DNA of 64,000 nucleotides from Macrostomum hystrix (lineage: Eukaryota; Animalia; Platyhelminthes): contig CATNEN010000001.1 in assembly GCA_950097015.1 (NCBI GenBank), forward strand, positions 15,128,001 through 15,192,000, in the 5' to 3' direction. Of this stretch, positions 3,991 through 59,352 are shown piece after piece (position 1 is the stretch's first letter; every line of letters starts with the position of its first letter). A program made the position numbers and the translations under genes. The notes under the pieces were generated by a model. It did no database searches. It saw only the letters and a program-made list of their open reading frames with translations, and had not been told where the DNA came from.

Positions 3991-4592
3991 CCAATAGTTC
4001 CAATCTCCCCAACAGCATAGTTGAGCTGACCAGGAACCTCCTGAGGTTTTCAGTGCGCATAAAAGGTACTCCAGGGAGTGAGTTACCAAACTAACAGTTT
4101 GCCTACAGATAAAACAAAATTAAGGTGCCGTCAGGCAGGCTAAGGCTGGTTGCAGTAAAACAGTTAATTCTATTCTTGCTCGCTTAGATATTTGCTCGAC
4201 CATTTTCGCGACATCCTCAAAGACCGCTTGCTCGCTCACTGCGGGTAGCAAGAAATTAGACTTATTTTCGTCCCTGTCTTGTGTGTCCTTCACCTTATCT
4301 GACTAGCCGGCTTAATGGGATCATGATTTGATTACTACTCGGAGTGGATGTCGGGACCCCATCTCCTCTCGTCTCCCTCGTTGATAGCTGTTTCTACATT
4401 TTACAAACGTTTTGCCTCTCCCCCAGAGGTGACCATTATTATTTTTATTCCCCGAGGATAAAGTTGCAATTGGTTTGTTCAAAATGTGCATGTCCAAACT
4501 GCTCTACTAACTAAGTAGAAATACTAGTTTTTTACTATAAAAACTGCTAAAAATGTTTTTACAGTTTCTTTACACGATTCAGCCCAGTGAAA

Positions 4593-5770
4593 ATGCAAAC
4601 GCGTCTGCTAGCTCGAGTTTTGAGCAATTGGCGAGCATCGCCCTCCTTCACCAGCAGCAGCAGCAGCAGCAGCGGGGGCGGCGGCGGCTTTGACACCTCA
4701 TTTGGTTATGAGCAGGTTGAGCCGGGGCAAAAACAGAGCCGGGTGAATGAGGTGTTCAATCGAGTATCGGACAGCTACGACCTGATGAATGATCTGATGA
4801 GCGCCGGCCTGCACAGGTGCTGGAAACGCAGATTCGTAGCTTCGGCCAATCCCAGGCCAGATTGGAGAGTTGTTGACGTGGCCGGAGGCACTGGCGACAT
4901 CGCGCTTGGCCTGCTGGCATGGAGCCGGAGACACGGCGGCGTGCCCGTGTCTCCCGGACTGGGCTCAGCGTCAGCCAGGATTGACATCAAAGACAGCAGG
5001 TAGAAATATCCCTAATCCAAGATCCCAGATGCTCTCGTACAGTTTCCAAATATCCCCGATTCAAAATCCCAAATCCTGATCCTCAGACTCAGCCTGTGGA
5101 TTTCCTCCGGTTTAGTTACTTAGTGCCTAAATCCCTATCAAGTTTCCTTTTTTCCTATCCCCATTATCACAGTGTCGAAGCCTTTCGCGAAGCCGCGGAA
5201 CGTCAGGCAGCCGCAGCTGAAGGCGCCGGTTCCGCCGCGGCCTCGCAGATTGCTGACGGCGCCAGCTGCCGGGTCACTGTTGTGGATCCCAGTGTCGGCA
5301 TGATGCAGGTTGGTCAGTCGAAGGCTGCTAAACGCGGCGAGTCGTTTGCCAACGCAATCGACTGGCGGGAAGGTCGAGCCGAAGCGCTGCCATTGGACGA
5401 CGCCAGCTGCCACCTGTACACCATCGCGTTCGGCATGCGCAATTGCACAGATCTGCCCGGTGTACTCCGAGAGGCTCACCGAGTTCTGAAGCCATACGGT
5501 CGCTTCGCCTGCTTGGAATTCTGCTCCGTTGACAACCCGTTGCTATCCGCCCTATACGACGAGTACAGCTTCAAAGTGATACCGCCAATGGGCCTGCTGG
5601 TTGCTGGAGACTGGGACTCCTACGAATATCTGGTGCAGAGTATTCGCCGGTTTCCGCATCAGGACACCTTCGCCGGCATGATGCGAGAGGCGGGATTCTC
5701 CGCCGTCAGCTACGAAATGCAATGGCCCGGCGTGTGCTGCATTCATTCGGGCTTCAAACTGCCTGCTTAG
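4593..5770 (+). CDS. COQ5: Mitochondrial 2-methoxy-6-polyprenyl-1,4-benzoquinol methylase (UbiE/COQ5); join(4593..4999,5173..5770), ~334 aa
   Basis: Motifs TSFGY, VF..V...[66 protein letters not shown]; N-terminal Arg/Ser-rich targeting peptide; GT at 5000 and AG at 5171-5172 join in compatible phase 2. Confidence 0.95.
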
Positions 5771-8246: not shown

Positions 8247-8789
8247 TGTTCTCAACAAATAACTGACCACTGCTGTACCAAGTTGCACACTGACCGATGT
8301 CCCAAAATCAGTTATCTGCCTGACCTCCGACTGCAGAAGTCACGCTATTGGCTGCCCAATCCGGTGTCATGGCCGGGACACAGGCTGAGGTTGGGGCAGG
8401 CAAAACAGCGAAAAATAATCAAGAAAAAGCAGCTATCAGTTGTAGGTCGGGCTCGAATCTAAATAGGCTGTTGCATCAGAAATTTGAGCGAGTCCCATCA
8501 GCTGCAACAGGAGAGAGCAGAGGCTGCGACCTTGCCCAGCACATATTGACTCCGAAATACCGCGAGAGTGAGAAAGACTTGAGACCGCGTGAGTCAAGGC
8601 GGCCATGGCGTGCAGACAATATCTGCCTACTGCCGTGGAGGCAGTCTGGCTCTGAATATTAATGACCTCTATGCTGTCCACGACCCTCGTCGCCTGTTTG
8701 ACCCGTCTTCGTTAAAAGCGTCCAGCCGAAGTTCGCTTTCTGCGCAGCGGTCGGTCGGGTCGGGAGCGGCTGCTATACAGTTGAGGAGA

Positions 8790-14786
<5,997 letters not shown>

Positions 14787-23430: not shown

Positions 23431-26400
23431 TTGAGTAGCAAACAATTAGCAAATTTACAAATTATTAAACGCTCCTGCAGCAGTGAAATCAGCCAGAATT
23501 TTGTCAAAGTCTCAGCGCAGGCCTGTCTTAAATGGCGATTTTGTGTCATTTTGTGTAGCTTGCGCAGTTGGGAACATTGTTCGAGTTTTAGAATTTAGAT
23601 AAGATTAGATTGCTTTTAGCTTATTCAATTATATTTTTAAGGCCTATGTGAGAATTCTGCAGTCTCCTATTTGACCTCGGCGCTTGAAAGCGCCGATAAT
23701 TAAAATTTTAGCTATTTAAATTTATTTGATAAGAAACAGAAACGTGAATTTCTATGATTTACCAAAAAGTAAGCAAAGTTCATCATATTTCTACTTACTT
23801 AAGTAGAGAGATTAAAACATCGCGCATATTTCAGATTTTTAGGTTTTCGTTTTTCAAGTAAATTTAACAGTCAATTTGATTCTCAATTCTAAAATTGCTT
23901 ATAGATAGCGGAAATCCGTATGAATATAGCGAGGCAAAAGGACCAAATTAGCTTAAAAAAGAGAGTATAAAAATAGTTTAGTGACATATTAGTATGATAT
24001 TAATTATTAATATAAAATTTATGTAAGTTTGTTAAGAAGTTTTTTTGTAGAAACCTCAAGTGAAAACAAAGTAAAAAAAGTTGTAAATTGTCTAGTAAAA
24101 CGGCCCATTTAAGGCATACCTGAATCGCATCTATCGGCTTAGTCAGGAACTTTGGCTTAGGAAACGACTTCTAAAAGCACGAGATGTGAACCTAAATATT
24201 AAACGAACAGATAATGGATTTTTTATGAAGACAGTTTACATCATGCGTCGGTAATGACCAATGAATTGTATAAAAGCAAGACTATTATTGGCAAATTTAT
24301 TTATCATTTGTTGACGCGGGGTTTAAAATGCCGTTTCTTACCGATGTTAGGTAATTTGCTTGGGAGACCCAAATTTAATGCTGCTGCTGTTGAGGCTGGT
24401 CGTGTTTGTAACTTTAAATAGCATAAAAAAGAAACATTAAAGTCTTAAAATCACTGCAGTTAATAATAATAATACACTACCCAATAAAATAAATACATCT
24501 ATGTTAATGATGTCACTTCCAAGTTCCATACTTTAATTTTACATTATATTTTCTTTAGAATTGATGGCATATTAGGTAGCTGGTAACCCTAATTCTTCTT
24601 GCTTCCAGTGGATGCATTTCTTGTCGACGAAAACTTTTCTGTTATGCCTACTGTTAAGTAGACCATTACGCACATTTTTCTTGAAATTCTTTCAAAACAG
24701 GCATCGTGGCAAATAAGAATCTTTGATGATATTAAAATATCGATCGTGCCGATTTTATCTGCTCTGCGCTGTATTTAATGCCACACAGATGCGTCATCCC
24801 TCTGCGTCTTATGCATTTTGATTCCGTGTGTTTTATTCACTTTACCGCGGCTATTTCATCGCTGGGTAAGTCTGCGCATGAAGATATAACTCATTTAAAA
24901 ATAATTAAACTTAAAATATTCATTTACTTGGACTTCGAGTTCAAGATTATACACATTTTACAGAAAACAAATAGTGTCCATGGATATTTTCCAATGGCTA
25001 CTAGCAAATCGTTCCTGATTGGCCAAGCATTAGCACATAAAGTATCAACAAAGAGTCATTGTATTTGTTTTGCTATCATAAAGCCTTGCCTCAAAGTATC
25101 ATAAAGCCTTGCATAGTTATAACTATTAAAACTTTAGCTTGTAGTAGTAATTATATAAGTGCTTATCACTTAATTCCTTCTTTGTGGTTGTGTTTTGCTT
25201 GACACGAACGGCCCTTCTGACACATACATTTTGCCTCTAATTCATACTTAAATTTATTGGTATCCCTATTAAGGGCCGTTTTAACTACTCTTCACGCACC
25301 CTATGGCCTACCGTCTAGAACGCAACGAGCGTAAAAATATCGTTCGTCTAGACTAAGCTAGTAATGACGTCGGTGACTTATTACGGGATGAGTGAGCCGT
25401 GATGCATATCAAAGTATACAGCGAGTGCTTCAAAGCTTAACCAATAGGCCTACGTATCCGATATGTATCGAAAGGTATGTCTTTCTCACTAGCTAATATA
25501 TAATACTCACACTCTCTTACTAAGGAGATAAAGGCTGTGAGGGCGATTGTCGATAAAGCCCGGATGGCGATTCTCAATGAGGCTAGGATGCTTCGATTGT
25601 CTGAGATTCAAGTGCAATTTCTACCGACCAAGAAACAAGGAGTGAACTGAAGACTTAAATGAACAGATTTAAAAGAAAAGACTGAAAAGCGCAGTCTTTA
25701 GAAACATACAGAAACAAAGTTCTGTAACAGTTGGTAGATCGTTTTGTGGCAATTTGGAATTTGGAATAGAGTTTTTGCATTTCCGAAGTTAGACATGAAA
25801 CTCTACGAGCACAACTTTTTGTTCGACTTTGACCTGTGGAAGCACCAAGTTCTCTAAGCCAATATATTTTTTGAGTGGCAACTGACCTTAAAGCGCCCAG
25901 CGTATCTTCTTCAAGAGAGGCGTGACCCGAAATTGATTCCATATGCCATTGCTGGCCTAAGAGCAGAATCTGCTCATCCGATACGTCAAAGCGAGTGTCA
26001 ATACAACCAGAATTTTTTATGACAGCCACTTCGCGCATTAGAGCTTAAATTTCGTTTTTAATTGCCGTAAGGGTAGTTGCAATCAATTTCAACCTTTGCA
26101 AACTATACTCACATGTGCATTTAAAAGTTGTTAAGCATTGAAGCTGTGTAAAATATGGGATATAGACAATTTCCTCCGATCATTCCGCATGTACTTTAAA
26201 AACTATCCATACGGTCTTCAGGCAGCCCAGGCTCGTTCAGAATGCTCACCGTCACACAAGCCAGCTCCCGGAGTAACGCGTACAGATTAATTCAGCTGAC
26301 AGCTAGTTTTATGTCCAAGGACGTGAAACGCATTAACAGCACACATGCTACGGACATCAGCCCCGGACTGTGCAGCGATAGACTTGACCCGATTGGAGAC

Positions 26401-26740
26401 ACGACAACCTGAAATGGAAACGATTTCTAATATATTCGAGCAAGAAAACGTTTTATGCACTTTCAATATTTTTTTGGAAACTGTTAAAAAAATATTTTGC
26501 ACGAAGTATGAATTATAATGATATGATCTAAACTGTACGAATGTTAAATCGGATTACTCAACAACATCATAAATAAACAGTATATTCTTTGACACTGGCG
26601 TCGTTTTTAAATAATGAAGCAGGCATTGCTCTGAATAGCAAAGACGCACTCCTGGAGTATATATAATACGCCCTGTCACAAGACTATTGTGTCTGCAGAA
26701 CAGACCAAAGAATCCATAGACGTCCATAGGGATCCATAGG

Positions 26741-26900
26741 GATCGGCGTCGGCGTCGGCGTCGGTGGGATCGGCGTCGGCGTCAGCGGGATCGGCGTCGG
26801 CGTCGGCGTCGGCGGGATCGGCGACGGCGTCGGTGGGATTGGCGTCGGCGTCGGCGGGAGCAACGTCGGCGTCGGCGGGAGCAGCGTCGGCGTCGGCGGG
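26741..26900. repeat. GC-rich low-complexity repeat (CGGCGT)n with GGGAT interruptions
   Basis: Directly visible. Confidence 0.9.
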
Positions 26901-27093
26901 AGCGGCGTTCCTGGGACCACGGAGTTCCTCCGACGCCGAGGACACAGCCAAGGCCGCCACTTCGGCAGCAGCCTTCGCCAAATACAGTAATATACACAGT
27001 AGTAAAAAGCATAGGGGACTCGGCCGGGCTCTTTTGCTGCATAAGAATCGCTATATAAAAAACCATAGACTGCACAGCCGGGCTGAATTGCCA

Positions 27094-28086
27094 CTATTGC
27101 AATTTCAATAGAGAGACTGAGTGCGAGCGAGGAAAATATGTTTCATCGATGCCGAAAAAGGAAAAGCACAGGTCGTAAGCGAGCGCCACAAGACCCTGCG
27201 ACTTGTCGTACTTACCAATGTCGGCTTCGAGTTTCTCCAAGAACTCGAGAACAGACGGCGGAGCAGTCTCCGAGAGTTTTTCCGCAAACTCCTGAGCGGA
27301 CACATCGGTGAAAAGATGGACGCCGTCACGAAGGCAGGCAAGTAGTCTCTTCTTGACAATGCGAAGGAGTGGACAAAATATAGCGTTAACAGCCTTGCGG
27401 TGATGCACGATGGTCTGCAAGGCTTGATAAGTGAACGCCGCGTCGTCGTTAAGTGTCGGTTTCGGCTTCTTCTTGATCATGTACGAATACAAGTTGAGAG
27501 CCGTCTCGTGAAACGGAGCGTTGGCATCAATGACCTCAACGACCTTGGCAGGCAGACCCTGCAGCCACTCGTTAATGTCGGTGGCGGACAGCTGAATCGG
27601 CTCGCTGTTGTGCAGAAGTACCTTCTTCGGGTCGAGGCACTTACTGACCATAGCGTCGAACATGTCCTTGGCGAGAGATTTCGGATCCACGAACCCGGCC
27701 ATGTCGGGCACGTTCCTGTTGCGCTTAGCGAGCGCGATCATAGACTCACGACCAGAAAAGTTTCGATTGTGCGGCATCTGAGTAGAAAGCACAGGCCTCA
27801 TGGCCTCATACTGCGAAGCACGAGAGTTCATCTTGAGCGGATTGAAAGAGAAGTCATCCACACCGATCTCCAAGTCGGTGTTGTGGACTAACCACTCATC
27901 ATGCGCTTGGCAGGCGCGCGAACTCAATGGAAAGGCCGAGTCGACGACGTGCTGCACATAGTCGGCGCCGAGGGTCTGGTCTCCATGGACGTCGACCTTC
28001 TCGAGCTTGATAGGTTCGGCCTCGAGCGCGACCATTTGATAACCCTGAAAGGACAAAAGACCCGCGTTGGCAAGGACGGTCTCAAC
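27094..28086 (-). other. Endogenous viral element: N-terminal part of an alpha-like (Martellivirales; Virgaviridae/negevirus-like) RNA-dependent RNA polymerase
   Basis: Stop-free ORF with PVLST.MP, ES..ALAKRN.NVP, YSYMIKKKPKP.L, Y.ALQTIVHH.K.VNAIFCP, and motif A LEADIGKYDKSQ, typical of tobamo-like RdRP_2; ends before motifs B and C (no GDD). Confidence 0.88.
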
Positions 28087-28509
28087 CTAGCCAGCCAACT
28101 CCCCACCTAGCCAGCCAACTCCCCCACAGCTAGCAACTCCCCACCTTGGATCAAGTCGCCAGTACTTCATAAATGCACAGTTGCTCTAATGACCAAGTCG
28201 CATGACCAGACTTACCTAGGCCCCTGAGCCTCACCTACACTCACTGCAGCTGAAATAAAATAAATGAACAGTTGAAGACCAAAACATGCTCTACCAGAGC
28301 CCTTCTTAGAATGGAGGGGAGAATATTTATTTGCGCCTCAATGCACGAAAACACGACCGACAAAATTGAAAACAATATTTTATCGAGCACAAGACACGCA
28401 GCTATTTGCACTTTTTGCAATTGCACTTGCACTTTTTGCATCGGCATATTCAGCTGTTCCAATGCAGCATCCTACAGCCCACACAACTTGTACGTATCAC
28501 CATATCACA

Positions 28510-28648
28510 CTCATCACTAAATGCTCATCACTAAATGCTCATTGCTAAATGCTCATCACTAAATGCTCATTGCTAAACACTCATTGCTAAATGCTCATCG
28601 CTAAACACTCATTGCTAAATGCTCATCACTAAATGCTCATTGCTAAAC
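28510..28648. repeat. 15-bp tandem repeat (CTAAATGCTCAT(T/C)(G/A))
   Basis: Directly visible. Confidence 0.85.
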
Positions 28649-29657
28649 CAAGGACTACTTAAGTAGAAGGACGCTGCACTCCCGAATGGTGTAGATTTTT
28701 TTGAAGGCCATTTTTCAAAATGCTGTTATTTTTAAATGGTTGCATGTAGAGGTCTAGTTTTTTCACGGGGTTGCTCAGAATTTATTCCTCTTTTAGATGA
28801 GTGAACAGTTTCGGCTGCAACTACATGTATTCGCGAGAAATGTACAGCAAGGTACTGTTACCCCCTTCTTTATTATAGAACAATAAAGCTAGGATATTTA
28901 AAGGATAATTCCGACAATTGAGCTAATGTAATCCAATTAAAATGAGATGAGATTAACAAAGAACGAAGCCCGTCAGTCTGTACTTTTCAAAAGCCATCCC
29001 TGATCTTTTCAACAATAAAATAACAAAGAGCAAAAGCAGAGAAACTGGCACAATGCCAGTGCTGATAACAATCGATGTATCGTTGTTGGACTGGAAACAA
29101 AAAATGTTGAACTGAACTGGTTGCTTGTTGCACAGCAGCTCATTGTACTTTAATCTCAATTGATAGCTACAGTAAGGCAAATATGTATGTAAGGCTGCAA
29201 ATATAAGACTGTGTATAGTGTATAGTGTATAGAAACTGTGGCAACTATTGGGTAGGCAACAGCAGTAAAATGCAGAAACCAACTTATGAAAGCAGCAACA
29301 AATGTTTAAACCAACGTATGAAAGCAGCAACAGATGCATAAACCAACTTATGAAAGCATAAGCATATTCAATGACGTGAATGTGAATTGGGTCTGTATAA
29401 AACATGGACAACCATGGACTATGGGTCAAATTACATGCTCAATCAATTAACAATGTTCGCTTCAATTCTACGAGCTATGTTGCCTCCGATTTTGGCTTAT
29501 TGCATTTTTGGTTGGATATTTCGATATTTTCCAGTGTCCACTTCGTTTGTTTAAATTAGAGGTGTCTAAGTGTACAATGGGTGTTCAAGTTTTATACGAA
29601 CTCGGTGTGTTGATAGAATGTCACGGATTTCTCAAAAAGCGTACTAACAGCTCATAA

Positions 29658-31699
29658 CTAACTTGATGCTAACTTTCGCAGACGCCGTCCACTGCCGGGC
29701 GTCTCTCGTACATGGTCCGAATCACGACGCACGAGTCCTTTAAAAAATGTGTTAGCTAACCTCCTGGAAATGCGGCTAACCTGAGCTGGATCTGAAACAG
29801 TTACATCCATGAAAGCTTTAAAAACGTTAATAAAAGATCGGACACAATAGTTGACGCAGTGGATCTTGACAGAGGAGAAAAAAGCATAGCACAGGCTGGA
29901 GAAAACTAAAAGCCACTCTGGCGGGTGCCGGAGCTTGCCACGAGATAGCAGCGATGTAAATTCGCTACCGCCAGGAAACTCAGTTGCAAATGCTTCAAAA
30001 ACTTCTGGAAGATGCTCTTTAGCAGCAACGTAACCGGAAATATAGTACAAAGAAGCATTCTCCTCATCTGTATTGTGGCTGATCTTGTCTTGAAGCTGAT
30101 CAAACACCTCTAGATCAGAGTCCTTCATCCCATCGGAACAGCATGTCGCCGGCTCATGAGCCTCAAAGCTGTTCTGAAGCGCTCCGTACAATTTCATTCG
30201 GTGCAGCCGAGCACTGGCCATAACTTGCTCGACTGTTATGTAGTAACACCCGCCGTGGCCCTGGCGGTAGAGAGCGAACTCGGCCTCCAATCTGTCTGAT
30301 TGCAGTACACCTTAAAGACAATTTCGTGACCCATTAGATAGCCGTGACCTGCATCCCCACAATTCATTAAATTCATTCCCTAGCAACAATTATTCAAAAA
30401 CTGATTGCTGCATGTAAATAATGCAAAGAACTCACCAAGAAGAACGTAAGAAAATCGATGGTTGGTTAGAAGGTGTCTGCTGAGGCCCACCAGACCTCTT
30501 GTTGTCTGGATTAAAGCGTTGCGCGTCTCTGTGGTGAGCGACCGACCGCGTCCCGCACCTCGTCCACCCGGCATGCGCTCCACCAGTGCGGAGAAATTAA
30601 GTAAATGTGTCAAGCTGCTAGATTCTTCCGACGTAATTGGAGCCCTAAGTTTGTCATTCAAGGCAACGTGTGATTCTGGTGATTTAACATTAACTATTTT
30701 CCAAAAGGTGACCACATGGTCCACAAAGTCGGCTGAGTCATGGCGACCGTTAACACGAAGTGCGGCAACCGTCTTCTCGTTGAAGATGTCGACAACTAGT
30801 GACACCTTTTGTCGCTCCAGTGGAGACGGATTGCACGCGACAGAGTTGACTGAAGTCGGGCGAACTACTTGTCCACGGGATCGCTCCTCGATTTCAACAA
30901 TATCATTCCAGCGTGCTCGGCAAACACGTTCCTGCTTATCTGCTGATGGGTGAAAATCGATCTCCTTGTGCGCTTGAGTGAACCAATTATTTCTTATATT
31001 CTTAAACAAATGCACTGTGTCAAACAACAGAAACAATGGTTTCTCTGCGTCTGCAGGGTTTTCGGCAAGCCATGGTGTGTTTGTGTCGCAATGAAACAGT
31101 TTGAAACAGTTCTGGTTAGTGAAGTGATTATCGCAAATCAAGCTCACAACTGTACCACCACAGCCGTGGACAATTTCAATAAGTCGTACAACCTGTCTGT
31201 GTAAAAAAGCAGGCTGTAAACTATAGATTGGCACAAGTCTGGCAACAAACGCAGGTGCGCCCATAAATGGTTTTACCATAATGGCGAGAATAGTCCGAGC
31301 AAGCTTCTGTGGAACATCCTCAGCAAAGCCAACTACATGGACACCTTTGAGACGAAGTGAAGGTTGCACATACACTTCATCAAAGATGATTGAGCACAGG
31401 CACTGAGACGGTGTGTTGTGTTCGAAATTCGACTTGACAATTTGCTGACAGTCGGTGTCGGTTCCAATGCTGCCAAGTCCACCCAGATGACGTTTGAGAG
31501 TGTCTGGATGTGGTAGACAGGCGAACTCTCTCATTGCACGATAGCCAGCACGACTGGTGAAGTACATTCTGGCAGCTGTCATTATATCATTTGCAGCATA
31601 CCGTACGCCATGATGCTGAACAACACTCAGTTGCAGCTGTCGAACATGTCGAGCAGCAGCTGTGTTGCTGCTGCAGTCCACCTGCAGCTCCACCAAATG
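29658..31699 (-). mobile_element. P-element superfamily (THAP9-like) transposase; complement(join(29658..30310,30436..31699)), 5' exons unresolved
   Basis: HTH region with CLPHPDTL; catalytic IIFDEVYV, LICDN...NQ, FDTVHLFKNIRNNW; ERQKV.L...IF; spliced LG|VLQSDRLE.EF..YRQ..GG.YYI (phase-1 GT-AG intron 30311-30435). Confidence 0.85.
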
Positions 31700-33056
31700 C
31701 TGTTAGGGTGACATTTAACCCCCGGGACGCCCGACGCCCGACGTCTTCGTCAGGGGCGGCTGGGTCGGCAGCGGCGGCAGGGTCGGCAGCGGCGACAGGG
31801 TCGGCGGCGGCGGCAGGGGCAGCAGTGCGTCCTAGTGCACGCAATAACTGCTTGTGTGATCCTATTCCGTGCCGGAATAAGCAATATTGCTGTTCCGGAA
31901 AGTACTGAAGCACCTAAAGGAGAAAGGCAAGTCAAAGTTAAGGCTTTCACTTTTCAAGTCAAAGAAATCGAGGGCTTTGACTTTCGACAGCCAGAAGTCC
32001 AAGTTTAATTTTTTAAGTCTAAGAAATTTAGGGCTTTGACTTCTGATTGCCAAAAGTCCAAGTTCCACTTATTAAGTCTAAGAAATCCAGGGCTATGCTT
32101 CTAGGGCTATCCAGGGCTATACTACGCTGCGACTTTTGGAATTAAATGGAATTAAATTAAAATTCGTTTATATCCAATTTTTTAAAATAATAAAATTAAT
32201 ATTAAAATTAATAACTACAATAATAATAATAACATCAAAATGGTTGTAAAAAAAATTTACATTTCAAAGCAGATCAAATACAGACTTACAGCATCCCCTG
32301 ACGTATAGGCCATGCTTTTGCCTGATGCGCCGGCAGCTTGGGTGATTCGGAGGCACGGGCAGAGCAGCCGCACGCAGTCCTTGGCCTTGCAGGTAATGAA
32401 GCAGGCACTATTTAATGGGCACGTTTGCATGGGAGCCAATGGGCGGCCCATAATTCGATCTAGAGGCAGCGGCCCCACGCGCAATACATCCAGGATGGTT
32501 GCCATGGCGATGCTGATGCTGATGCTGCAAACAAATAGTAAAACTTAATAGAGTATCTCCAGCCTCTTGATTTTGTGTAGCTAATATTATCAATATTACT
32601 TCTGATTGCCAAAAGTTCAAGTTCCACTTTTCAAGTCTAAGAAATTACTCTCAGGTTAATGTAATCTCCTATATGGATACTATGGATATAAGAATTAGAT
32701 AACAATAAAAGACAAGAATGATTTTAAATATGATAGGGGCCTAAATGGGCCATGTTAGGAGCATAAAATCATTATACTACAATCAACCCTCTTCAAATAT
32801 ATCATTTCAATGAATCCCCCTTTGAATATTACAGCTGATGTAATAATCAGTTCCTGTTGAATACATTCAGGTCTAACAATCAATCCCCTTTTGAATAGTT
32901 GCAATTGCAATAATTTAAACCATCTACTGCACACCATTCAAAAGATGATAATTTCTGCAAACAAATAGTAAAACTAAAAGGAGTTATCACCAGCCTCTTG
33001 ATTTTGTGTAGCATTTCATGCATAGCTAATATTATCAATTGCTTTTAATTGCTTTT

Positions 33057-39561: not shown

Positions 39562-40731
39562 CAGATCTACGCCCTACCCGATGGGCCTCTGCGTGCCCGA
39601 CCGCCTCTGGTCCGCTGCTGCAGTCTGGAGGGCCTCCTAGCCATTGACGAGGACGCGGCGCGGCAGGAGATCTCTCGGCTTGCCTTGGAGCGGCCGGTGA
39701 CTCTTCGGATTTCGAAAATCGACGGCTTGATTGAGAGTACCGGCGAGGCTGCCATCGTAGCCGAAGATATGCTGGACGATACTGGCAAATCAGTTAGCGA
39801 GCGGCTCCTTGAGCTGCGGTTGGTCAGGCGGTACAAGCCTGCCCGGCCCAGCCTGGAATCATTTGCAGAGCTCAAGATTGTAAACTCCGAAACCGCGCCA
39901 CCTTGTGTCTAAGAGCAAGCCAAGCCGCTTGTCAACAAATTTCAACAGTCTGCGCTGTCCACCTACGAATCTAAGTTGCCCAGCAACGAAGCGAAAGTTC
40001 CTAGCAACGAAACCAAAGGTCCTAGCAATGGGAATATTCCGCCTAGCAACGAAACTAAAGAGCGCAGCAACGAGAATATTCCGCCTGGCAACGAATTCAA
40101 AGAGCCTGGCAACGAGAGCATTCCGCTCAGCAACGAAACCAAAGGGTCTAGCAACGGGAATATTCAGCCTAGCAACGAATGCAAAGGGCATAGTAACGAG
40201 AATATTCCGCCTAGTAACAAGAATCTTCCGCCTATCAACAACACTAGACCACTTAGAAACGAAGCTAAGCCGGCTATGAACGCTGGGAAATCTATCTACA
40301 TCGGTGCCGTCACGATTACTGAAGTGCTCTCACCGAACGAGTTTTTTTGCATTCTGCCCAATGCACCACCTCCAGTTCTGCCCCTGTCACCTAGGGAACC
40401 AATAGGCCTCACAAGTCTGGCCGAACTTGATGAGTTCGACCTCAACGCCCTATACGTGGCCCGCTATTCGAGGGATCCTACTCGCCGCTACAATCGCGTG
40501 CGCCTGCTCAGCTTGAACCTTTGCAACGCCACGGCAACCGTGCTTCTAGTCGACTTTGGTCACGTCGAATCGACGAAACCACGTGGTCGAAGCCACGAAA
40601 TATATCAAGTACCTACCTGTTGTGGCCTTCGGCTTTGGCGGTTTCGGCTGCTTCCGCTGGGGGGAGGGGCGGAGCGCGTTGGGAGTTCCAGTCTCTGCCG
40701 CGCAGTCGCAGTGCATTGCGTGAACGCCTGA
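39562..40731 (+). pseudogene. Fragment of a multi-Tudor (TDRD-like) gene
   Basis: End of one extended Tudor domain (IYALP..PL...PPLVRCCSL), in-frame TAA at 39910, SNE-repeat linker, second extended Tudor domain (ITEVLSPNEFFC; YVARYSRD..RRYNRVRL; ATVLLVDFGHVE), then frameshifted EFQSLP/AVAVHC. Confidence 0.75.
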
Positions 40732-42422: not shown

Positions 42423-42830
42423 AACAGCAGCACAGCAGAACAGCAGCACAGCAGAACAGCAGCACAGCAGAACAGCAGAACAGCAGCACAGCCAGCACAG
42501 TCATAGCCAGCCCGCCGCCCGGTAGCCCCTGGGGTCTCGCCCGACGTCCCGGTCGCTATCCGGACGACGGCTACGATCCCCTGCTGGTGACGAAACTGCT
42601 GGAGAACTACCGCAGCGAAAGCGAGAGCGAAAGCGAGAGCGAAAGCGAGAGCGAAAGCAAGAGCGAGAGAGCGAGAGAGCGAGAGCAAGTGGCAGGGAAG
42701 GAAAATAATAACATAGGATAAGTATTTGCAGAGCCATTATATTTGCAGAGCCATTATATTTGCAGAGCCATTATATTTGCAGAGCCATTATATTTGCAGA
42801 GCCATTATATTTGCAGAGCCATTATATTTG
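42423..42830. repeat. Cluster of short repeats: (CAGCAGCACAGCAGAA), (GAGCGAAAGCGA), 17-bp TATTTGCAGAGCCATTA x6
   Basis: Directly visible. Confidence 0.85.
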
Positions 42831-42849
42831 CACATCTGTGCAAATAGTG

Positions 42850-43385
42850 TCGACACCTCCTGGCATCGTGGTCAGCCTATCAGGCCGCGGATGACCTCGG
42901 TTGGCTCGGACGGCCGCGCCTCGGCTGCGGCAGCCAAGATCGGCACATCAGGGACGAGCAGAGGACAGCGCAGCGCACGCCGTCGCACTGAGCCAACCGG
43001 CGTGGGCGACTTCGCGGTGCTTCAAGACGCCAGTTGCCCCCGGTCTCTGCCGCTTCTGAATCGGATCCCCCCGGGTGGCGCCGGGGACCGTGAGGCCCAA
43101 CGTCATCGGGCCCTAGCCGTACCAGGTGGTCGCCTCAGGCTCGGCACGCTGAACTGCCGGACCCTGAAGGCCCCCTGGCGTCGCACTCTGCTCGTCCAGC
43201 TGGCCCACGACCTACAGCTGGACCTCATAATGCTGCAGGAGGTCTCTATTGTGGCGGAGCCAGGCCTTCAAAATGAGGACCTTGGAGCCGGATGGAGCCT
43301 CTTGTACACGTCGGCAGACGGCCGCGGGCGTGGCGGCGTCGGCGTGCTGATCGGACCGCGCCTTCGGCAGAGCGTGCACTGCGCC
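42850..43385 (+). mobile_element. 5' fragment of a non-LTR retrotransposon (RTE-like), APE endonuclease N-terminus only
   Basis: LRLGTLNCRTL...LDLIMLQEV...GGVGVLI motifs; similarity stops at ~43385. Confidence 0.75.
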
Positions 43386-44152
43386 CCAGTTGACAATAAT
43401 CCCCTAGTTGATGATGATCCCCTGTTGACAATGTTCCAGTTTTGTTGCAGTTCCCAATCTGATAACGCCTGCAGCTATGATCAAAAACTCTTTCCTATAG
43501 TTTTAGTATTGAATAAAACTTGCTGCTTCACTCGAAAAACTTATATTCTTTTCCGAGAGCGAGTACAGTAATAATAAAGCTAACAAATATCTGCTTCGAC
43601 AGTAGCTAACCAAAAGCGCTTACTATTTATACTCGAACCAAAAAAATGGCCAATAAAAATACTAATAAACAGAAACTTACGGTTTTTACTGTTGATCATA
43701 GAAGATTAGAAGAAAAAGAAGCAGTAACAAAACTGATGCTGAAATTAGATCTGCATTCTGCAAAATAATAGAAGTACTTTATTTCGGAGCTAGATGAAAA
43801 GAAAGCGGCACAATGATCGAAGTCGAGATATTAAGGTTTGACAATAGAAAGGCTGCAGTTTTATGGATAGTAAGGAGGAGGAGAGGTCTCGCTAGCATTG
43901 AGCATCATAAAAGCCCAATCATGAAATCTGCTATGTACGAGATTACGTTTTACTTATTCAAATCAAATCACTCAATCAGCCAAGAGACAAACTTATGAAC
44001 GCACGTACGGATCGAAAAGCAGTGACGCAATCCTATTCAATTGAGAGTATCGGGCCCTGTTCTGTGCGTGCGTGAAAAAGCACCGATGCAATCTAATAAA
44101 ACTGACAGTGTCCGGACCTATTCCAATTCAACCTTGTTTGGCCGGATCAACA

Positions 44153-44894: not shown

Positions 44895-47800
44895 TTGACT
44901 TACTTGACTTAGCGGCAGGGGGCCTCCATGACGGACGCAGCGAGGAGGCGGCTGGTGCCGCCCATATCGCTAACCCCTGGCAGCCAGACGGCCTCCATCG
45001 AGGCGGTGCCGCTCAGGGTGGTCCGTCGGTCGGTTCCGCCGCGCGATCTTCCTCGCCATAGGCTGGGAAGAAATCAGCTCGGCCGGTATCCCGGAGGAAG
45101 TGGGCGAGCTGTGGGATGTTCTCGGGCGAGCAGGCTTCGGCAAGAGTCGGTGCCGGCCCGAGATGCTTTAGCCTAGCCCGGGTGAAGGCCGGGCAGTGGC
45201 AGATGAAATGTTCGGCGTTTTCACGTCCGGAGCAGCAGAAGGGACACGTTTCCTCAGGCACGTGGCCTTGGAGGTAGCGGTGTCTGGTGAAGCAGCCATG
45301 TCCCGAAAGGGCCATGGTGACTGCTCTCAGGTCTCTGCGGTTTAGCCTGAGTAAGGCCTTACGCAGGTTACTTGAGGGGGTTGGCACCGCAGCCCTGGAC
45401 TGGCGACAGTTCAGGGTGCTGGACCACCTCCTCCGATGCTGGGTCTCCATCCAGCGGTTGATGCTGGAGTTGACAACAGAGGCGGGGATCGGGGATTCCG
45501 GGCCCGGGCCCATCAGGGAGCTGGCTGCTCCAGCCTTTGCAAGCTGGTCCGCCATCTCATTCCCTGTGAACCCGGCATGCCCAGGGATCCACATCAGCTC
45601 CACCTTATTAGACTGCGCCAACCCGTTTAACTGGGTGTTGCAGTCCAAGGTGGTTCTGGAGCGAGAGGTGCAGCGGCTGAGGGCCTTGAGGGCTGCTTGA
45701 CTGTCGGAGTGAAAAAAGATCCTCCGACCAGCCAGCCGCCTCTGGCGCAGCTCAGCCGCACAGAAGCTGATGGCGAGCACTTCGTTTTGGAAAACGCTAG
45801 AGCTCTTGCCACAGTATTGGGAGTGGGTCCAGAGGACCTCACCACCCGAGGCGACGCACACTCCGAATCCCGATTTACCGTTCATCAGAGAGCCGTCAGT
45901 GTAACAGTGGACTGCCGGGTCATCCCAGCAGTCCTTTACCTCATTACGAGGGGAGATGCTGACTTTGTACCTGTGGCTCCGGAGTAAAGTGGCCGGGGCC
46001 CCGTCCGAAAGGATGGTGAGCCCTCCGCACTCGCCCAGAGTTTTCAGGCAGAGGTCAGAGTGAGGCAGAAGGGAGCGCTTCGAGAAGGCTCGCGAATTCT
46101 GGAAGTAGACACCCGCATCAAGAAGACGTCGGGTGGACTTTGCTGCTTCCCCCTTGACGAAAATGTCAATGGGTGTAGCGTTGAGGAAAGCATTCATGCC
46201 TTCGAAGGGAGTGGAGGGTGGGGCGCCCAGCGTCATACGACAGGCTCTGCCCTGCACCCTATAAAGCGCCTCCAGGTTTTTCTGGATGCCCATGGCGCTG
46301 GCCCAGATGAGGCCAGCGTAAGCGACGGACGGTCTAATGATCGCCGTGTAAATCCACCAAAGGTTCTTGGGGGTTAGCCCCCAGGTGACTTGCGCCAGTA
46401 TGGCCAGGGCCCTCTGGCCTTTGTGGTGATGTGTGGGGTCCAGTTAAGCCTATGGTCTAGCACGAGACCAAGGCACCGGACCTGCTTTTCCATTGCAATA
46501 TTCTTGCCATAGAGAGTCAGAGGCTTAATGGTCCAGAGCAGTTTGCTGGTAAACATAACCGCGACGGTCTTGGACTCAGAGAGTCGGAGCCCGCATTGGT
46601 CCGCCCAGCGCACCGCCCTGTTGATAAAGCCCTGAATGAGGTCCCTGGTGGTTTCCGCCGAGGGGCCCGCGCAGATGGCGGTCACATCGTCGGCATATCC
46701 CACCTTCAGGACTGGGTCTGGACGAGTGCTTTTCAGCAGCTCATCCATGACGAGATTCCACAGCAGTGGGGTGAGGACGCCGCCTTGGGGCCCTCCTTTT
46801 AGGACAGGTGCCGAGAGCACCATGCCTTCGAGGTGGGCCACCACGTGGCGATTCCGGATCATGTACATGACCCAGCGAACGAGGTGGGGGTGAGTGGCCC
46901 TGGAAACTAGGGCCTTCTCAAAGGCTTCGAAAACAACGTTATCGAAGGCCCCCTCAATATCAAGGAAGACAGCCAGGGCAAAACCGCTGCCCAGTACTGC
47001 CTTCTCTAGAGTCTCCACGATGCAGTGGAGGGCGCTCTCCGTGGACCGGCCCGCCCGAAAGGCGTGCTGGTTTGGCGAGAGCGGGGCCCGCCCTAGCTCT
47101 ACAGTAAGAAGGCGCCAGAGCACCAGTCTTTCCATGAGCTTGAGGCAGGTGGAAGTCAAACTTATCGGGCGATAAGACTTGACCGAGCGATAGTCGCCTT
47201 TGGCGGGCTTCGGGATGAAGACGACCCGGGCTTCGTGCCACAGCGCTGGTACGTAGCCCAGCACGATGCAGGCCCGTAGAAGTCTGCAGAGGAGATGGAG
47301 GAAGCGGCCATTTTTGACCGCTTCATGCAAAAAGGCCGGATAAATACCATCTGGCCCAGGTGCTTTGAAAGGGTTTAATGACTTTGCCGCGCGAACGATG
47401 CGGTCATTCGGGACGAGTGACTGAGCCAGGCCCTGACCTCCACGTGAGTGGTCGTCTGGGCCAAAGTGCGCCGGTACACTCGGGAAGAAATGCCCTAGCA
47501 TAAGCTCGAGCGTTTCCTCCGGGCGCTCCGTGATCGAGCCGTCTGGCTTTTTGATCGATGAGAGCTTGGAGAAGCGGTCGTTGGTGAGCGCCTTTACCAC
47601 GCGGGCCGTGGGCCGCGAGCCCTCCAGCCCTTCGCAGTATTGTCGCCATTTGTCCGCTTTTGCCCTTCTGACCCGGCCCTTAAACTCATGGATGGCGCGA
47701 GTATAGGCCTCTTTGTCATCAGGGTCGTGCGAGGTTTTCAGCTTCCTCTGGAGAGCCTTAGCTCGGCGTCTCAGGACTCCGAGCTCGGGGTTCCACCAGG

Positions 47801-48825
47801 GGGCCGATTTTTTGCCTTTGTAGGCTTTGAGCGGGCAAGCCATTTCGTAGGCCTCTGTGATGGCGCCGCCCAGCAGGGCAGCCACTCCATCTAGGTCCTG
47901 CGTGGTTGCCATGGCCATGGAGGGGTCGGAATCCCGAAGGCCCTCATGCAGCTTTTGGCTGAACGCGGGCCAGTCGGTGTTTCTGACATTACGCCTCCAA
48001 ATAGGCTTTTGCTTCTTATCGGGGGTACCGATGTTGAAGCGAATGAAACGATGGTCCGAGAGCGAGCTTTCGGTCTCCCATACCTCCCACCCCAGCACCC
48101 TTGGGAGGATGCCGGGTGAGGCCAGGGTGACGTCAAGCACCTCAGCCCACCGCCCATTGTCGAAAGTGGGCGTGTTGCCCACATTACAGAAGTTAAGAGG
48201 CGTGCCGCTGACGAAGGCCAGGAGCTCTTCGCCGCGGTCATTGATTTTTTAGCTACCCCAGTGGGTGTGATGCGAGTTTGCATCTCTCGCGAGGAGCAGC
48301 TCGAAGTTTCGTGCCCTGGCGAAATCACAGAGGGCGACGAGGGTATCGCTGACCACGGGGGCGTCGCCTGCCAGGTAGGCGGATGCCACGAGGGTCAACT
48401 TGTTAGGCACAATGTGTGCAGATTGGATGACGCAGATGTCCCCGTTAGAGAGATCGGGTCTCATCCACGCATTTAAGGCTTTTGCGGCATAGATCAGTGA
48501 TCTAGGGCGGACAGAGTCTGCCATGCAGAAGCAGTCATAGCCAGCAGGAATGTTGCTTGGCTTGTTCTTTGATAACCAGGGCTCCTGCACAAGTACAAGG
48601 CCCGGCATCATGCGCTCTGTCGTGCGCATCAGATTTACTGATGCTGCCACGCAGTGCTGGGTGTTAACTTGCAGACATGATATTCCGGGGATCATCATGC
48701 AGGCAGAGGTCTACTTGGAGGGGGACTCAGCCAGAAGGCGGTCCTCCTCCTCCAGGTCGATGTCGGTAGGCATGGGCTCCTCCGTGCCCAGGCCCCGAGC
48801 CAGAGGCGGGAACTCGACGGGGTCA
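44895..48825 (-). mobile_element. 5'-truncated LINE (I group, Loa/R1-like): end of ORF1 plus ORF2 (APE-RT-RNase H-CCHC) with two frameshifts
   Basis: APE LQVNTQH, VQEPW, DANSHH..WGS, SDHRFI; RT KAPGPDGI, YRPISL, FLDIEGAFD, PQGGVLTP, YADD; RNase H YTDGS, SDSQAAL, WIPGH.G..GNE.AD; CPFC...E..EHF.C.C; 12-bp TSD CGCGAATGGATC at 44883-44894 and 48826-48837; short TAAGTCAA(G) 3' tail. Confidence 0.93.
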
Positions 48826-52795: not shown

Positions 52796-55465
52796 CGGCC
52801 GAAATCGAGGCTCAACATCTCGGCACCCTGTTCTCCTAACTATAAATCACTCCCAACAACCAGCGAAATCCCGCCCAGACAGGTAACGATCAACCAACAT
52901 AGACGATCATATCGTCCAGCAATCTTGGTCCTTGTATTGTGCCTATTGGCTACATTGCTGCCCGTTGCTATGTCAACCCCAACTGTGGCACCACCAAATC
53001 AAGAGGACAAACATGTACATCCATTGTATGTCGACACGCCAATGCTGTGTCCATCTAATATTCCGCCTAAAATCTTCACCATACCACAAGAAATCGAGTG
53101 CGAGAAGTTTCAACAACCTAGGCGACAAGTCACACCTATCCGCTTGGAACTCTACAGCACCAATCTTGATACGGCTTCTATATTGATTACGGCATGCCTC
53201 CGTGAGAAATTATCATTCTCTTGTACTAAATCATCCATAGTACGACGATGGAACGATGCCACTATCAAGATTACCCCTCAACCAGTCAGTCAACAAGACT
53301 GCCAAAGGTGGTCAGAAGGCAAGGTTTCACCTGAGGGTGTTCTGAAACTAAAAACGTCTCCAACCCAGACTCTTCGTCGTTACCAATCGGACATTAGCGA
53401 CGCCATGACGACTGAATGCCTCGCAAATCGTCCCTTCGAAACGACAATAACTACAATAATACAGAACATCCCGGCATACGCTCAACCTCATGGTTTGATG
53501 GAGTCTTTATCATTTCCGGTCAAACACTGCAATTACACTACACATACTTGCATACTGGAGACTACTTTTGACCAAATGATTCGATTCAATTTGCCTCTTT
53601 CTATCTTGGCTGCTCCTTGGAAAGACCTCGAACAAAATGCCTTGTTAACGTTAACTACCTCTGGCAATCGTCAACTTCGACTCATTTGGACGATGCCAGA
53701 ACTCTCAGATTGTCGTCTTAAAGCCTTCCGTGTGATGTCCGGACACCTAAGTTCTGGATTTTTTCTCAATGATGACCAGACACTTGGACTTACCTTCGTA
53801 CCATCACCTAAAACGCACCTGTTAACATGCTCAGGATTGCGGAAGACTCTATACCTATCTACCCAAGGAATCTATGTCGCTGTTCTCGACAACCAAGAGA
53901 ACAACTTCACTACCATTCTGCGTTCACAGATTACGAACGCTCCAGTGCTTACTCCGGCAAACCAGCCGACAGCCAGCGACATAGATACCGCCTCAATAAA
54001 ATTAAGACTCAGGCGCTCATCCGCCTTGACACTTCCAACTCCACCGACTCGATCTCCGAATCCAAATAAACAAATACTGGTGACAACGGAGTCCCTGCAG
54101 TCAACTACTCCTTTTGCCGGTACCGAAAGATCTGATCCTACAACTATGATAATACCAAATTCGCTACCGACGACACATTACGACACAGGAAGCTCCGTCG
54201 CATCCGACCCACCTAAAGTTACGAACAGTCCACTTAAGGACATACCGAACTCCACATCTTCGATGAGTCCGCAAACGGTGACAACTGAACAACTGACAAG
54301 TCAACGGATGTCTACCACCACAGTGGCACCGACACATTTGGTGGTGACAAGCACGTCCGACACATCTACACCACCAGCAGAGGTTGTTCCAAGAACTACA
54401 GGCCAAAGGACAGGTGAACCTGTCGGCCCGTATCATACACCGTTCCACGAACCTTCTGAATCACTACCTGACCTACCTAACCTAAGAAGGTTAAAACGTC
54501 AGACGAAAGTAGCTCAGACAACCAACACCACCGATACAGTTAAAACTTCTCAATCACTTGTTTCTGCAGAATTGCTATCGGCACAATTACAAGGCGTCAC
54601 AACAAAATTACATCACGATATTCAAGAGACTCACAACCAGTTGATGAACACGCAATGCAAGATGTACACTCTAAACTTAAAGTACAATCGACAGCTGTAT
54701 TATACAAATCCTACACTTGCCGCACGAATATTACTACAAACTCCATTCGTGCATGCACGTTCCATTGCGGGATACATCTTTGTATATCAGTGTCAACCAT
54801 TGCATAACTTTCGATTTGTACAACCGTACTATTCAACTGGAATGTGTTTTACTCGCCCACCAGTCTCTTTTACCGTTCAAAACCAAACTGCACTCGGTTT
54901 CCTCGATACGACAACTCGCATCGTATCCACTGCGAAACCTATGTTGATACCATGTCCATCAGTGTATCACTACTACCTCCCAAAACAGTCGATGCTCTTC
55001 AGAACGAACCTCAACTTCACCACGTTTACGCCGACTAGTTCTGATTTCACGACAGATGAAACGTACAAACTGGTGGACCTCCAGTCTTCCATTATACAGA
55101 GCATCTTCACCCCACTGGGAGACATTAACTACACGTCACTACGAAGTGCAATCACTATAACCGACCTAATGACACAATTCATACATACACGTGATTTCTT
55201 AGTCACCGTGTTTAAACTTAACAATACTGGCCAATTCAAACTCGGTTTTGATCCTATCAGTGGCCTCGACACACACTCAGCGCTTATGAATCTGTGGTCC
55301 AATTCCCTATTCAGCTGGGAACGCCTTAAGGCGAACCACCAGGAGAAATTTATATTCAGCGCTGCAGTCATTGTCTATGTTGCACTAATCATTTTTCTTT
55401 GCAACATTGGAGCCTCTGTGTCGCCTCCACGCTCCATTTTGGTAGCACACACCGTGTCGCCTTGA
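52796..55465 (+). CDS. env: Envelope glycoprotein, class III / herpesvirus gB-like (frame open from 52796; no ATG before the signal sequence)
   Basis: Hydrophobic signal (ILVLVLCLLATLLPVAMS); Cys-rich ectodomain; RLRR and RLKR furin-type sites; gB-like blocks SAQLQ...L...I......C, NPTLAARILL....ARSIAGYI.V.QCQP, CFTRPPVSF, GFLD...RIV, IPC; N-glycosylation sequons; C-terminal TM FIFSAAVIVYVALIIFL. Confidence 0.8.
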   Translation, partial: RPKSRLNISAPCSPNYKSLPTTSEIPPRQVTINQHRRSYRPAILVLVLCLLATLLPVAMSTPTVAPPNQEDKHVHPLYVDTPMLCPSNIPPKIFTIPQEIECEKFQQPRRQVTPIRLELYSTNLDTASILITACLREKLSFSCTKSSIVRRWNDATIKITPQPVSQQDCQRWSEGKVSPEGVLKLKTSPTQTLRRYQSDISDAMTTECLANRPFETTITTIIQNIPAYAQPHGLMESLSFPVKHCNYTTHTCILETTFDQMIRFNLPLSILAAPWKDLEQNALLTLTTSGNRQLRLIWTMPELSDCRLKAFRVMSGHLSSGFFLNDDQTLGLTFVPSPKTHLLTCSGLRKTLYLSTQGIYVAVLDNQENNFTTILRSQITNAPVLTPANQPTASDIDTASIKLRLRRSSALTLPTPPTRSPNPNKQILVTTESLQSTTPFAGTERSDPTTMIIPNSLPTTHYDTGSSVASDPPKVTNSPLKDIPNSTSSMSPQTVTTEQLTSQRMSTTTVAPTHLVVTSTSDTSTPPAEVVPRTTGQRTGEPVGPYHTPFHEPSESLPDLPNLRRLKRQTKVAQTTNTTDTVKTSQSLVSAELLSAQLQGVTTKLHHDIQETHNQLMNTQCKMYTLNLKYNRQLYYTNPTLAARILLQTPFVHARSIAGYIFVYQCQPLHNFRFVQPYYSTGMCFTRPPVSFTVQNQTALGFLDTTTRIVSTAKPMLIPCPSVYHYYLPKQSMLFRTNLNFTTFTPTSSDFTTDETYKLVDLQSSIIQSIFTPLGDINYTSLRSAITITDLMTQFIHTRDFLVTVFKLNNTGQFKLGFDPISGLDTHSALMNLWSNSLFSWERLKANHQEKFIFSAAVIVYVALIIFLCNIGASVSPPRSILVAHTVSP

Positions 55466-58400: not shown

Positions 58401-59352
58401 CTTCACGATCCCACTATGCGATACTACGACAGCTACAATCTGCTCCAATCTGTTTCGATATGTGTTTTCTGTTGCCGGACTACCAGCCCATATCATCTCA
58501 GACAATGGTCCGCAGTTCATATCACAAGATTATCGCGACTTCATGAACACGCTAGGCATACAACTCATCTACACCTCATACTATCAGCCATCTAGCAACT
58601 TTGTTGAAAGAGCACACAAAACGCTCAAACAAACACTGACAGCATTTGTGCACGACAAACCCGAACTCTGGCTTGAATACCTTCCATCAGTTACGTTGGC
58701 AATAAATACAGCCGTACATGCTCATATGGGTGAATCTCCCTTCTATCTATTCTATGCTCGCGATTTCCTGCCACCTAATGCTAGAATCATAGAGCATCAA
58801 ACTACGGCCTACATGGATGTGATCAAGCCCGTCAACATTACGAGTTCTGCCATTTTACTCGCACGTGATATCGCCATTCAACATCTACACTCAGCAGTTG
58901 ATGCTCGTACTACACGACATAATGAGCAAATGTCTCAATCCACTCCGTTAAAAGTCGGCGCTCGCTGCTATCTAGATGTTTCCGCCACTAAGGCAACTAA
59001 ATTCTCTAATCCCTACCGTGGTCCTATGAGAATACTCAAATGGCTATCACCGCAGAATGTGCTCATCAATGATGTGAACAAGCCTCATGAACAACCTATC
59101 GTGGTACATGCTTCAAAACTCAAACCTTGGCCGAACGATACGCCTCCTGAAGCCATGATACCTGAGTTCACACATTCAACGGCTCAAACACACACTAATC
59201 ATCGAGCGAATCTTACTCGCTCAATTGCGTTGCAAACATCTCAGACGGACATCAAGCAGTATGAGACGGGTGCAGACCGTAATGCAACACCTACAAACAA
59301 CTTGAAAGAAGAGCCTAGATACCAACTACGCTCAAGAGCCGTACCACGATGA
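55399..59352 (+). CDS. pol: Gypsy Pol polyprotein: aspartic protease, RT, RNase H, integrase with GPY/F
   Basis: ALIDSGAS; RLVTDYRKLN, DLADAFYQ, YTAF, RLPQGL, YLDD; HTDASDTAIGAVL, TDHQPL, NVVADCLSR; IDIVGP, ISDNGPQF, VERAHKTLK; YRGP. The HH half of the integrase HHCC finger appears deleted. Confidence 0.95.
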   Translation: MQHWSLCVASTLHFGSTHRVALIRRLPSENVESTPATNRRRTTSFTLPRPLTPTAPPVELQMEALIPPQGKRPKPPPPAIPQWPASYACVVKHVTTATMIQLWCRGTQQTRYRCTALIDSGASISCISSAFAKRLGTPLQNTNLNAVCAGGQQLSLNHKTTFQMEIGDKVHSITAFVLDSPSSDYDLLLGVETFKTLGIPLQFDYAKAIATLGNEEIAMVNALAPQNETSAMLMEKTTIPPQSARRTTLMLSTHHTPGHPVFFVPKDHTIQKHRLIISSSLLTINTDGNTIMVEISNPSLSPVTLHPHQVVGNLADMRDYTIVDTAATLNRLAVSPTTECTRTLITSQLQEANAHLTPDEQALLIPLLIKYRDVLALLPTDMGCTTQYTANISVQPHSEPVTARPYPIAHGLQERFDQLIENFVQKGIISPSESEYSSPCLLVEKKTLDDHGRRQLRLVTDYRKLNKIINAPSIRPPRIPDLLHRLKSAKLFSLCDLADAFYQVRIDPESTKYTAFIAPNGLLWEFNRLPQGLKSSPGFMCRLVALLTAESANQIAYLDDVLLISQNFQEMLVELKHFFQKLRHHGLRISLKKCIFAKKEVQYLGFVVSEHGIKPTPSLIKKIKTFPTPTSVKQLQSFLGLANFYRTHIQGYSQIIQPLLVVLKSSSKPKKFTWTDSAQSAFDELKSLLTSDIVLTHPDPKKPYFLHTDASDTAIGAVLSQLDSRGHQKPVAYISKTLTSTEQRYPPIEREAYAIYWAIKKLHVFLYASYLPFHVFTDHQPLKSIFSDKHPISRRLQKWILHLQDYNYTLEYVKGKSNVVADCLSRIPKICGLHSVTQFDKLQTAIDDDPIFKIIKAALLGKPIQQKIPRTTQRFLRRQLKYFSVQNNTLYYDDDNGNMRLVIPHCYRDALLSSCQTLQRLTRFYYWPTLYKDVQTFVNGCTICHRAKSGPRLHPERKAVKFNEVFSHLAIDIVGPVPPANRDRDIFKYILTAQCGVSKFLFTIPLCDTTTATICSNLFRYVFSVAGLPAHIISDNGPQFISQDYRDFMNTLGIQLIYTSYYQPSSNFVERAHKTLKQTLTAFVHDKPELWLEYLPSVTLAINTAVHAHMGESPFYLFYARDFLPPNARIIEHQTTAYMDVIKPVNITSSAILLARDIAIQHLHSAVDARTTRHNEQMSQSTPLKVGARCYLDVSATKATKFSNPYRGPMRILKWLSPQNVLINDVNKPHEQPIVVHASKLKPWPNDTPPEAMIPEFTHSTAQTHTNHRANLTRSIALQTSQTDIKQYETGADRNATPTNNLKEEPRYQLRSRAVPR

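Follow-up and report, generated by a model that had tools for sequence, protein, structure and literature searches.

A stop-free frame in the genome of the free-living flatworm Macrostomum hystrix probably represents a piece of the replicase gene of a positive-strand RNA virus with nege/kita-like affinity, a piece that lies in nuclear DNA among DNA transposons, was likely copied into cDNA by a host reverse transcriptase (RT), was recently patched in and is probably inert. It would be a young, probably inert non-retroviral endogenous viral element (EVE) from an undescribed virus lineage, and the kind of element is already known. The analysis took up a preliminary description of the window, by which we mean the whole stretch of 64,000 nucleotides.

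The open frame encodes part of an RNA virus polymerase

The minus-strand frame 27094-28086 contains zero stops in 330 codons and has its first in-frame ATG at 28035. Upon shuffling of the same bases 2000 times the longest stop-free run reached 225 aa (median 73), as compared to 330 aa here. The frame has a GC content of 53% versus 45% window-wide, with a codon periodicity GC1/2/3 of 0.59/0.35/0.67. UpA depletion (0.46 in the element, 0.50-0.59 in host coding DNA) gave no separation of the two, and an Rfam scan of 25000-29700 returned no match.

The Pfam family RdRP_2 matches residues 70-316 of the translation (model positions 2-245 of 440) with an E-value of 3.1e-44, and alphavirus nsP4 structures are matched at E 1e-7; the family is clear from sequence. 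The preliminary description had read the frame as an unbroken piece of an alpha-like RdRp that carries motif A (DIGKYDKSQ) and is truncated ahead of GDD, and had proposed an RdRP_2 profile as the check. This profile now gives a clear match (E 3e-44) in the 330 codons without stop, motif A is in place (Table 1), and GDD was not found in any of the six frames of 26301-28400, including the part before motif A. The stop falls 33 codons past motif A versus a median of 233 aa in 97 full-length relatives. A functional RdRp needs motifs A and B and the GDD of motif C within a single frame, a set that is incomplete here; lacking motif C and some 200 residues more, any product would be unable to polymerise RNA.

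Among the 136 relatives with a motif A, 18 (P0003, P0006, P0007 and 15 more) have GDD ahead of motif A and are interleaved in the tree with canonical ones. Such a permuted C-A-B order was considered for the element as well and rejected, since GDD was not found before motif A. The fragment stops short of motif C and its motif order is canonical, like the A-B-C order of 114 of the 136 relatives including Negev virus.

The closest relatives are nege/kita-like viruses

A HMMER scan of 1.84 billion protein representatives retrieved 457 relatives at E<=0.001, the best being 41-44% identical. Six of the top 10 clusters are named: Negev virus, Soybean thrips nege-like virus 1, Hubei negev-like virus 1, Wuhan house centipede virus 1, Wufeng rodent hepe-like virus 1 and Loreto virus. 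Five of the six are nege/centi-like and the sixth, although called 'hepe-like', has the same MTase-FtsJ-helicase-RdRp layout. Nine of the top 12 matches exceed 2000 aa, with helicase and RdRP_2 in 9/9 and FtsJ in 7/9. Alignment-based scans gave a similar range, the best viral contigs (41-44%) being 9-10 kb genomes, with L003 shown to carry DiSB-ORF2, and the best metagenome contig reaching 41%; viral contigs of 6.3-6.7 kb (one shown with MP and TMV coat) were about 30% identical. A pattern scan with the single protein found one 24% match in viral contigs and zero in metagenomes, and a word-index protein search, blind above 2000 aa, found 2 distant matches at 181-578 aa and zero at 579-2000 aa. 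A best relative of 44% across the collections searched agrees with the earlier suggestion of a possibly undescribed virus lineage. When 40 relatives were run by tblastn against the 64-kb window no second viral piece was found, nor was any MTase, FtsJ, helicase, glycoprotein or SP24 sequence detected within it.

The element shares with negeviruses and nege/kita-like viruses (Negev, Loreto, Hubei negev-like 1, Wuhan house centipede 1, Soybean thrips nege-like 1) the RdRP_2 fingers and motif A, 39-43% identical and colinear from the first codon. In the free trees it sits on a long branch outside their clades, although a sister position to Negev/Loreto is not rejected (see below), and FtsJ, the DiSB-ORF2 glycoprotein and SP24 lie outside the captured fragment. 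The same is true of the capping MTase and SF1 helicase of a Martellivirales-type replicase, of which the RdRP_2-type polymerase is present.

Three trees were built (149, 50 and 38 rows), 4 short matches having been left out at alignment. All three place the element in a nege/kita-like assemblage without clear resolution, where it has a long branch (0.69-0.75) and belongs to no starred clade; the free trees keep it apart from both the Negev/Loreto and the centivirus clade. Six tobamovirus-sized rows form a clade of their own with 99% support, the element lying outside, in a sampling that holds no other virgavirid genera by name. In AU tests neither a sister position to Negev/Loreto (p-AU 0.47) nor one to the tobamovirus-type rows (p-AU 0.34) was rejected, and the fragment is therefore not assigned to a genus. 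It belongs to the same Pfam family, RdRP_2, as the tobamovirus-type Virgaviridae with MP and TMV coat (for example L067) but is only about 27-32% identical to them. Of the virga/nege-like affinity first put forward the nege/kita-like part (41-44%) is thus retained, and Virgaviridae proper are set aside on this identity and the position outside the tobamovirus-type clade.

Extent of the fragment and its junctions

Homology to relatives is strong over 27142-27960 and weaker up to 28086. Aligned with 11 relatives, the frame is colinear with them starting at its first codon, and one tblastn match extends to 28086, which puts the 5' edge directly against the 20-nt repeat listed in Table 1. The bin of this array has a mean depth of 6509 in sequencing run X1, where further variant copies are seen. 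What had been described as a short duplication (two copies) at the 5' junction turned out to be this 3.2-copy tandem array in a high-copy host repeat and not a target-site duplication. The latter was sought in five junction pairings, in which the best direct repeats measured 6-8 nt and were at chance level, and a poly(A) tail was not found at the junctions. The combination of the two by which a LINE-made retrocopy is recognised is therefore absent.

Table 1. Features at and around the virus-derived fragment, in window coordinates
Feature	Position	Strand	Basis
Stop-free frame, 330 codons	27094..28086	-	ORF list, motif scan
Virus-derived segment (linker upstream of RdRp, fingers region, motif A; nege/kita-like replicase)	27140..28086	-	homology
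Motif A (DIGKYDKSQ)	27196-27222	-	sequence and alignment with relatives
Tail of ambiguous origin (viral with a gap, or flank read through)	27094..27139	-	weak profile score
In-frame motif-B-like stretch beyond the stop: decayed viral remnant or chance match in host repeat	26989..27039	-	
Tandem array of a 20-nt unit (3.2 copies) directly at the 5' end	28085..28146	.	high-copy host repeat DNA
High-copy repeat piece, also in organism C runs; splice-donor-like site 28215 (-)	28145..28229	.	
Degenerate KDZ (Kyakuja-Dileera-Zisupton)-type transposase remnant, 3' neighbour	25721..26694	-	stops, frameshifts
P-element/THAP9-like DNA transposon (PF21787), multi-copy, 5' neighbour	28649..31702	-	Pfam, run comparison

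The other side is less sharp. Motif A is separated from FG by 13 residues here versus 14 in 125/125 measurable relatives (150 matches, 136 with motif A, 11 of them unmatched). The histidine that comes next is found at 24 versus 28 in 129/136 relatives, which adds a three-residue shortfall if the last codons are viral; this last segment scores weakly and is maybe flank. The profile score of the tail is equalled or beaten at 960 of the 127,936 window positions. Of the abrupt borders reported initially, the 5' one meets the 20-nt repeat; the 3' one is fuzzy, with an in-frame gap and firm homology ending near 27140.

Beyond the stop and in frame with it lies a stretch resembling motif B, which ranks 3rd of 127,894 window positions by profile score and into which 12 of 40 tblastn alignments with relatives run on. 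Its score is 11 bits, whereas none of 123 true relatives scores below 29.7; it is 5-9 codons out of register, and it sits inside an imperfect repeat of about 54 nt (0/1000 shuffles as similar). The bin that contains it has about six times the depth of the element in X1, implying multi-copy DNA. The likeness is probably a chance match and is the main loose end of the analysis.

The fragment is present in a probable DNA run

Four of the 21 listed sequencing runs were compared: X1, a probable DNA run from organism A that is possibly the source sample of the window and hence maybe not independent, and X6, X15 and X17 from organism C; the remaining 17 include three more organism A runs and one organism B run on record as holders. 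X1 holds 27063-28060 in one 998-nt contig that aligns to the window over its whole length with 1 difference. Depth in X1 is 92.7 on the element versus 68.5 on the unique flank 24000-25364, a ratio of 1.35 that is not to be read as a copy number, and all 30 of 30 bins are covered, unique non-coding flank included, as expected of DNA. On the 3' side the contig continues for 79 nt beyond the point where firm viral homology stops, so that this side is bridged by 31-79 nt of flank if the edge lies at or inside 27094; the 28086 junction is bridged by no contig among the 32 of 333 pieces listed. Because a 998-nt contig at flank-like depth exists in a probable DNA run, the element is in DNA and is not just stray viral RNA. 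The presence in DNA put forward in the preliminary description is borne out to this extent, by a run that may be the source sample.

The repeats at both ends of the fragment, together with the ends of the X1 contig at 27063 and 28060 and the lack of cover in three of the four compared runs (all organism C), would also be compatible with an assembly chimera, or with viral cDNA or a contaminant that became linked to host repeats by way of the repetitive flanks. We consider this most improbable given the 30/30 bins covered in X1, the flank-like depth and the alignment of the entire contig, which does not run on into helicase or GDD sequence. X6, X15 and X17 show no cover of 27204-28004, but this blank says little because the unique flank is likewise missing there at 85% identity. 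A word share of about 0.25 in these three runs stems from the P-like transposon and not from the element. No RNA run is on record as a holder among the 21 listed runs, which says nothing on expression.

Genomic neighbourhood and a possible route of capture

The fragment lies between two DNA transposons on its own strand (Table 1). The KDZ remnant at 25721-26694 has a second copy in the window, which matches PF18758 and with which it shares 35% identity over 109 aa and as much as 64% in tblastx. This second copy, at 61924-63786 (+), has a KDZ match and a weak CxC1 match. On the 5' side the P/THAP9-like transposon starts beyond about 560 nt of repeats. The neighbours are KDZ and P-like transposons and not LTR elements; no LTR-element sequence occurs at the junctions among the identified neighbours, 26700-27093 and 28087-28648 being unclassified. 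The nearest RT genes, of LINE and Gypsy type, are 18-28 kb from the element.

Positive-strand RNA viruses have no DNA stage, and the cDNA must therefore have come from a host RT. We propose that a virus was carried in germline cells by the host or a close associate, and that a partial cDNA was made by an RT of the LINE or Gypsy type, both of which are found in the window. Judging from the signals absent at the junctions, this cDNA would then have been end-joined into a break in repeat-rich DNA and not inserted by target priming or an integrase; end joining would explain why the 3' end is ragged and gapped. Little time would have elapsed since, leaving the frame open. Retrotransposon-directed reverse transcription of viral RNA has been reported in Aedes in the parts of PMC6797480 used here, and the Aedes aegypti vDNA/EVE piRNA pathway described there supplies the route that we assume. 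Unlike in that route, no retrotransposon sequence was found at either junction here.

The same mosquito precedent (PMC6797480, as far as drawn on here) raises the question of a function at the RNA level, in which the transposon-rich locus might give rise to antisense piRNAs or siRNAs that target the cognate virus. The shared orientation of the element and both neighbouring transposons would fit such a locus, and youth would leave the match to the source virus intact. Three elements on one strand are however expected by chance in 25% of cases, and other elements of the window are in the opposite orientation; we regard this explanation as rather unlikely.

Age of the insertion and the case for co-option

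The captured core is well preserved. Of the 32 columns that at least 85% of 148 relatives conserve, it keeps 31 (median of the relatives 30), and of those conserved at 70% it keeps 47/51. Under a neutral-decay model in which 3.5% of point changes create stops, the frame would still be open with a probability of 0.11-0.50 after 2% divergence; the range falls to 0.004-0.18 for 5%, and for 10% the value does not exceed 0.03. The frame is either young or selected, and up to about 2-5% divergence youth needs no extra assumption. Recent capture or selection had been offered as alternative reasons for the open frame; youth alone explains it, and the need for selection is not supported.

If the motif-B-like stretch were real, a pristine core would lie beside a decayed tail, and selection would fit better than simple youth. 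An older fragment could then have been kept as a host gene, with a transposon-derived 5' exon spliced on to give a catalytically dead piece of about 313 aa that would hamper related viruses, and with decay of what lay beyond the stop. The intact conserved core does adjoin this in-frame, heavily decayed stretch (11 bits, rank 3/127,894), and a donor-like site at 28215 and an acceptor-like site at 28045 precede the ATG at 28035, a layout also present in 31 of 2544 control stretches. The remnant and the splice-like signals were both spotted after the fact. We find a retained host gene quite improbable in view of the displaced register, the short repeat and the raised depth described above, which indicate a host repeat, of the transposon surroundings, which offer no stable gene context, and of an organism C contig (presumed RNA) that runs through the donor-like site unspliced. 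A domesticated dead polymerase, in which the exon with donor 28215 joins acceptor 28045 to give a fingers-plus-motif-A protein of about 313 aa that selection preserves while motif B decays, is in our estimate very improbable. Such a protein, if real, would act as a dominant-negative restriction factor and target nege-like viruses, in what is probably a non-arthropod animal.

Relation to other endogenous and exogenous viruses

Virga/nege-like EVEs are pervasive in insects according to Kondo et al. 2019, as cited in excerpts of PMC7154061. The young, probably inert insertion favoured here resembles them, as far as those excerpts go, in being a Martellivirales-type replicase fragment in animal DNA, and differs from them in virus lineage as far as identities show, the insect sequences themselves standing outside the comparison. 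The nrEVEs of horseshoe crabs, in the passages of PMC12282059 consulted, are likewise sub-genomic RNA-virus fragments, several with DNA-transposon domains in their flanks; they are mainly chuvirus-derived, some are orthologous across species and 18/20 are transcribed.

From flatworms, 14 exogenous Martellivirales are described and said to be absent from available genomes in the portion of PMC9241645 used, and a nege-like virus is known from a flatworm in that of PMC10269781. The literature listings, which do not cover supplements and subscription journals, contained no nege-like EVE in a flatworm. With a free-living flatworm as host, an integrated element would join the exogenous flatworm Martellivirales as these sources present them. 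It records a nege/kita-like lineage for which 1.84 billion protein representatives, IMG/VR and JGI contigs offer no relative above 44%, and would tie that lineage to the host germline, which is beyond the reach of transcriptome mining alone. Its apparent youth suggests that the source virus may still circulate, and makes a targeted virus screen feasible as well as a test of EVE-derived small RNAs outside arthropods.

Other features of the window

The P/THAP9-like transposon differs at 3 of 2998 positions (28649-31646) from an organism C contig in X6, where the unique flank is uncovered at 85%; recent horizontal transfer or introgression is a possible source of so near-identical a copy. One X1 contig joins 26810-26987 and 31694-31923 with 113 other bases between them. 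Its join of 26987 to 31694 might suggest an empty allele, but this was rejected, the second arm being a paralogue with 24 differences and 21 gap letters in about 230 nt. At other places in the genome the two segments may lie side by side within a single element family. A pair of 25-nt inverted repeats, 24096-24120 and 25259-25283, stands about 1.2 kb apart in a MITE-like arrangement, with a similar motif at 32742-32757.

Among the RT-bearing elements, a broken LINE at 45013-48710 (-) has endonuclease, RT and RNase H domains, and an endonuclease-like fragment is found at 42717-43571. A Gypsy-like element at 52796-59352 (+) carries an 889-aa ORF 5' of, and overlapping, an intact PR-RT-RH-IN ORF. 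This 889-aa ORF has weak matches to class III fusion proteins (Glycoprotein_B at E 3e-5, Monjiviricetes_fusion at E 1e-4), both below the cutoff; an envelope-like gene upstream of pol is unusual. A 272-aa frame at 39913-40731 (+) has no Pfam match and a second half that we take, by eye, to be Tudor-like. Two host genes lie at the left of the window, at 4551-5770 and 8583-14786 (+), the one for a COQ5-type methyltransferase and the other for an ionotropic glutamate receptor whose exons are very long; the best atlas cluster of the receptor is mostly chordate, which makes the host an animal.
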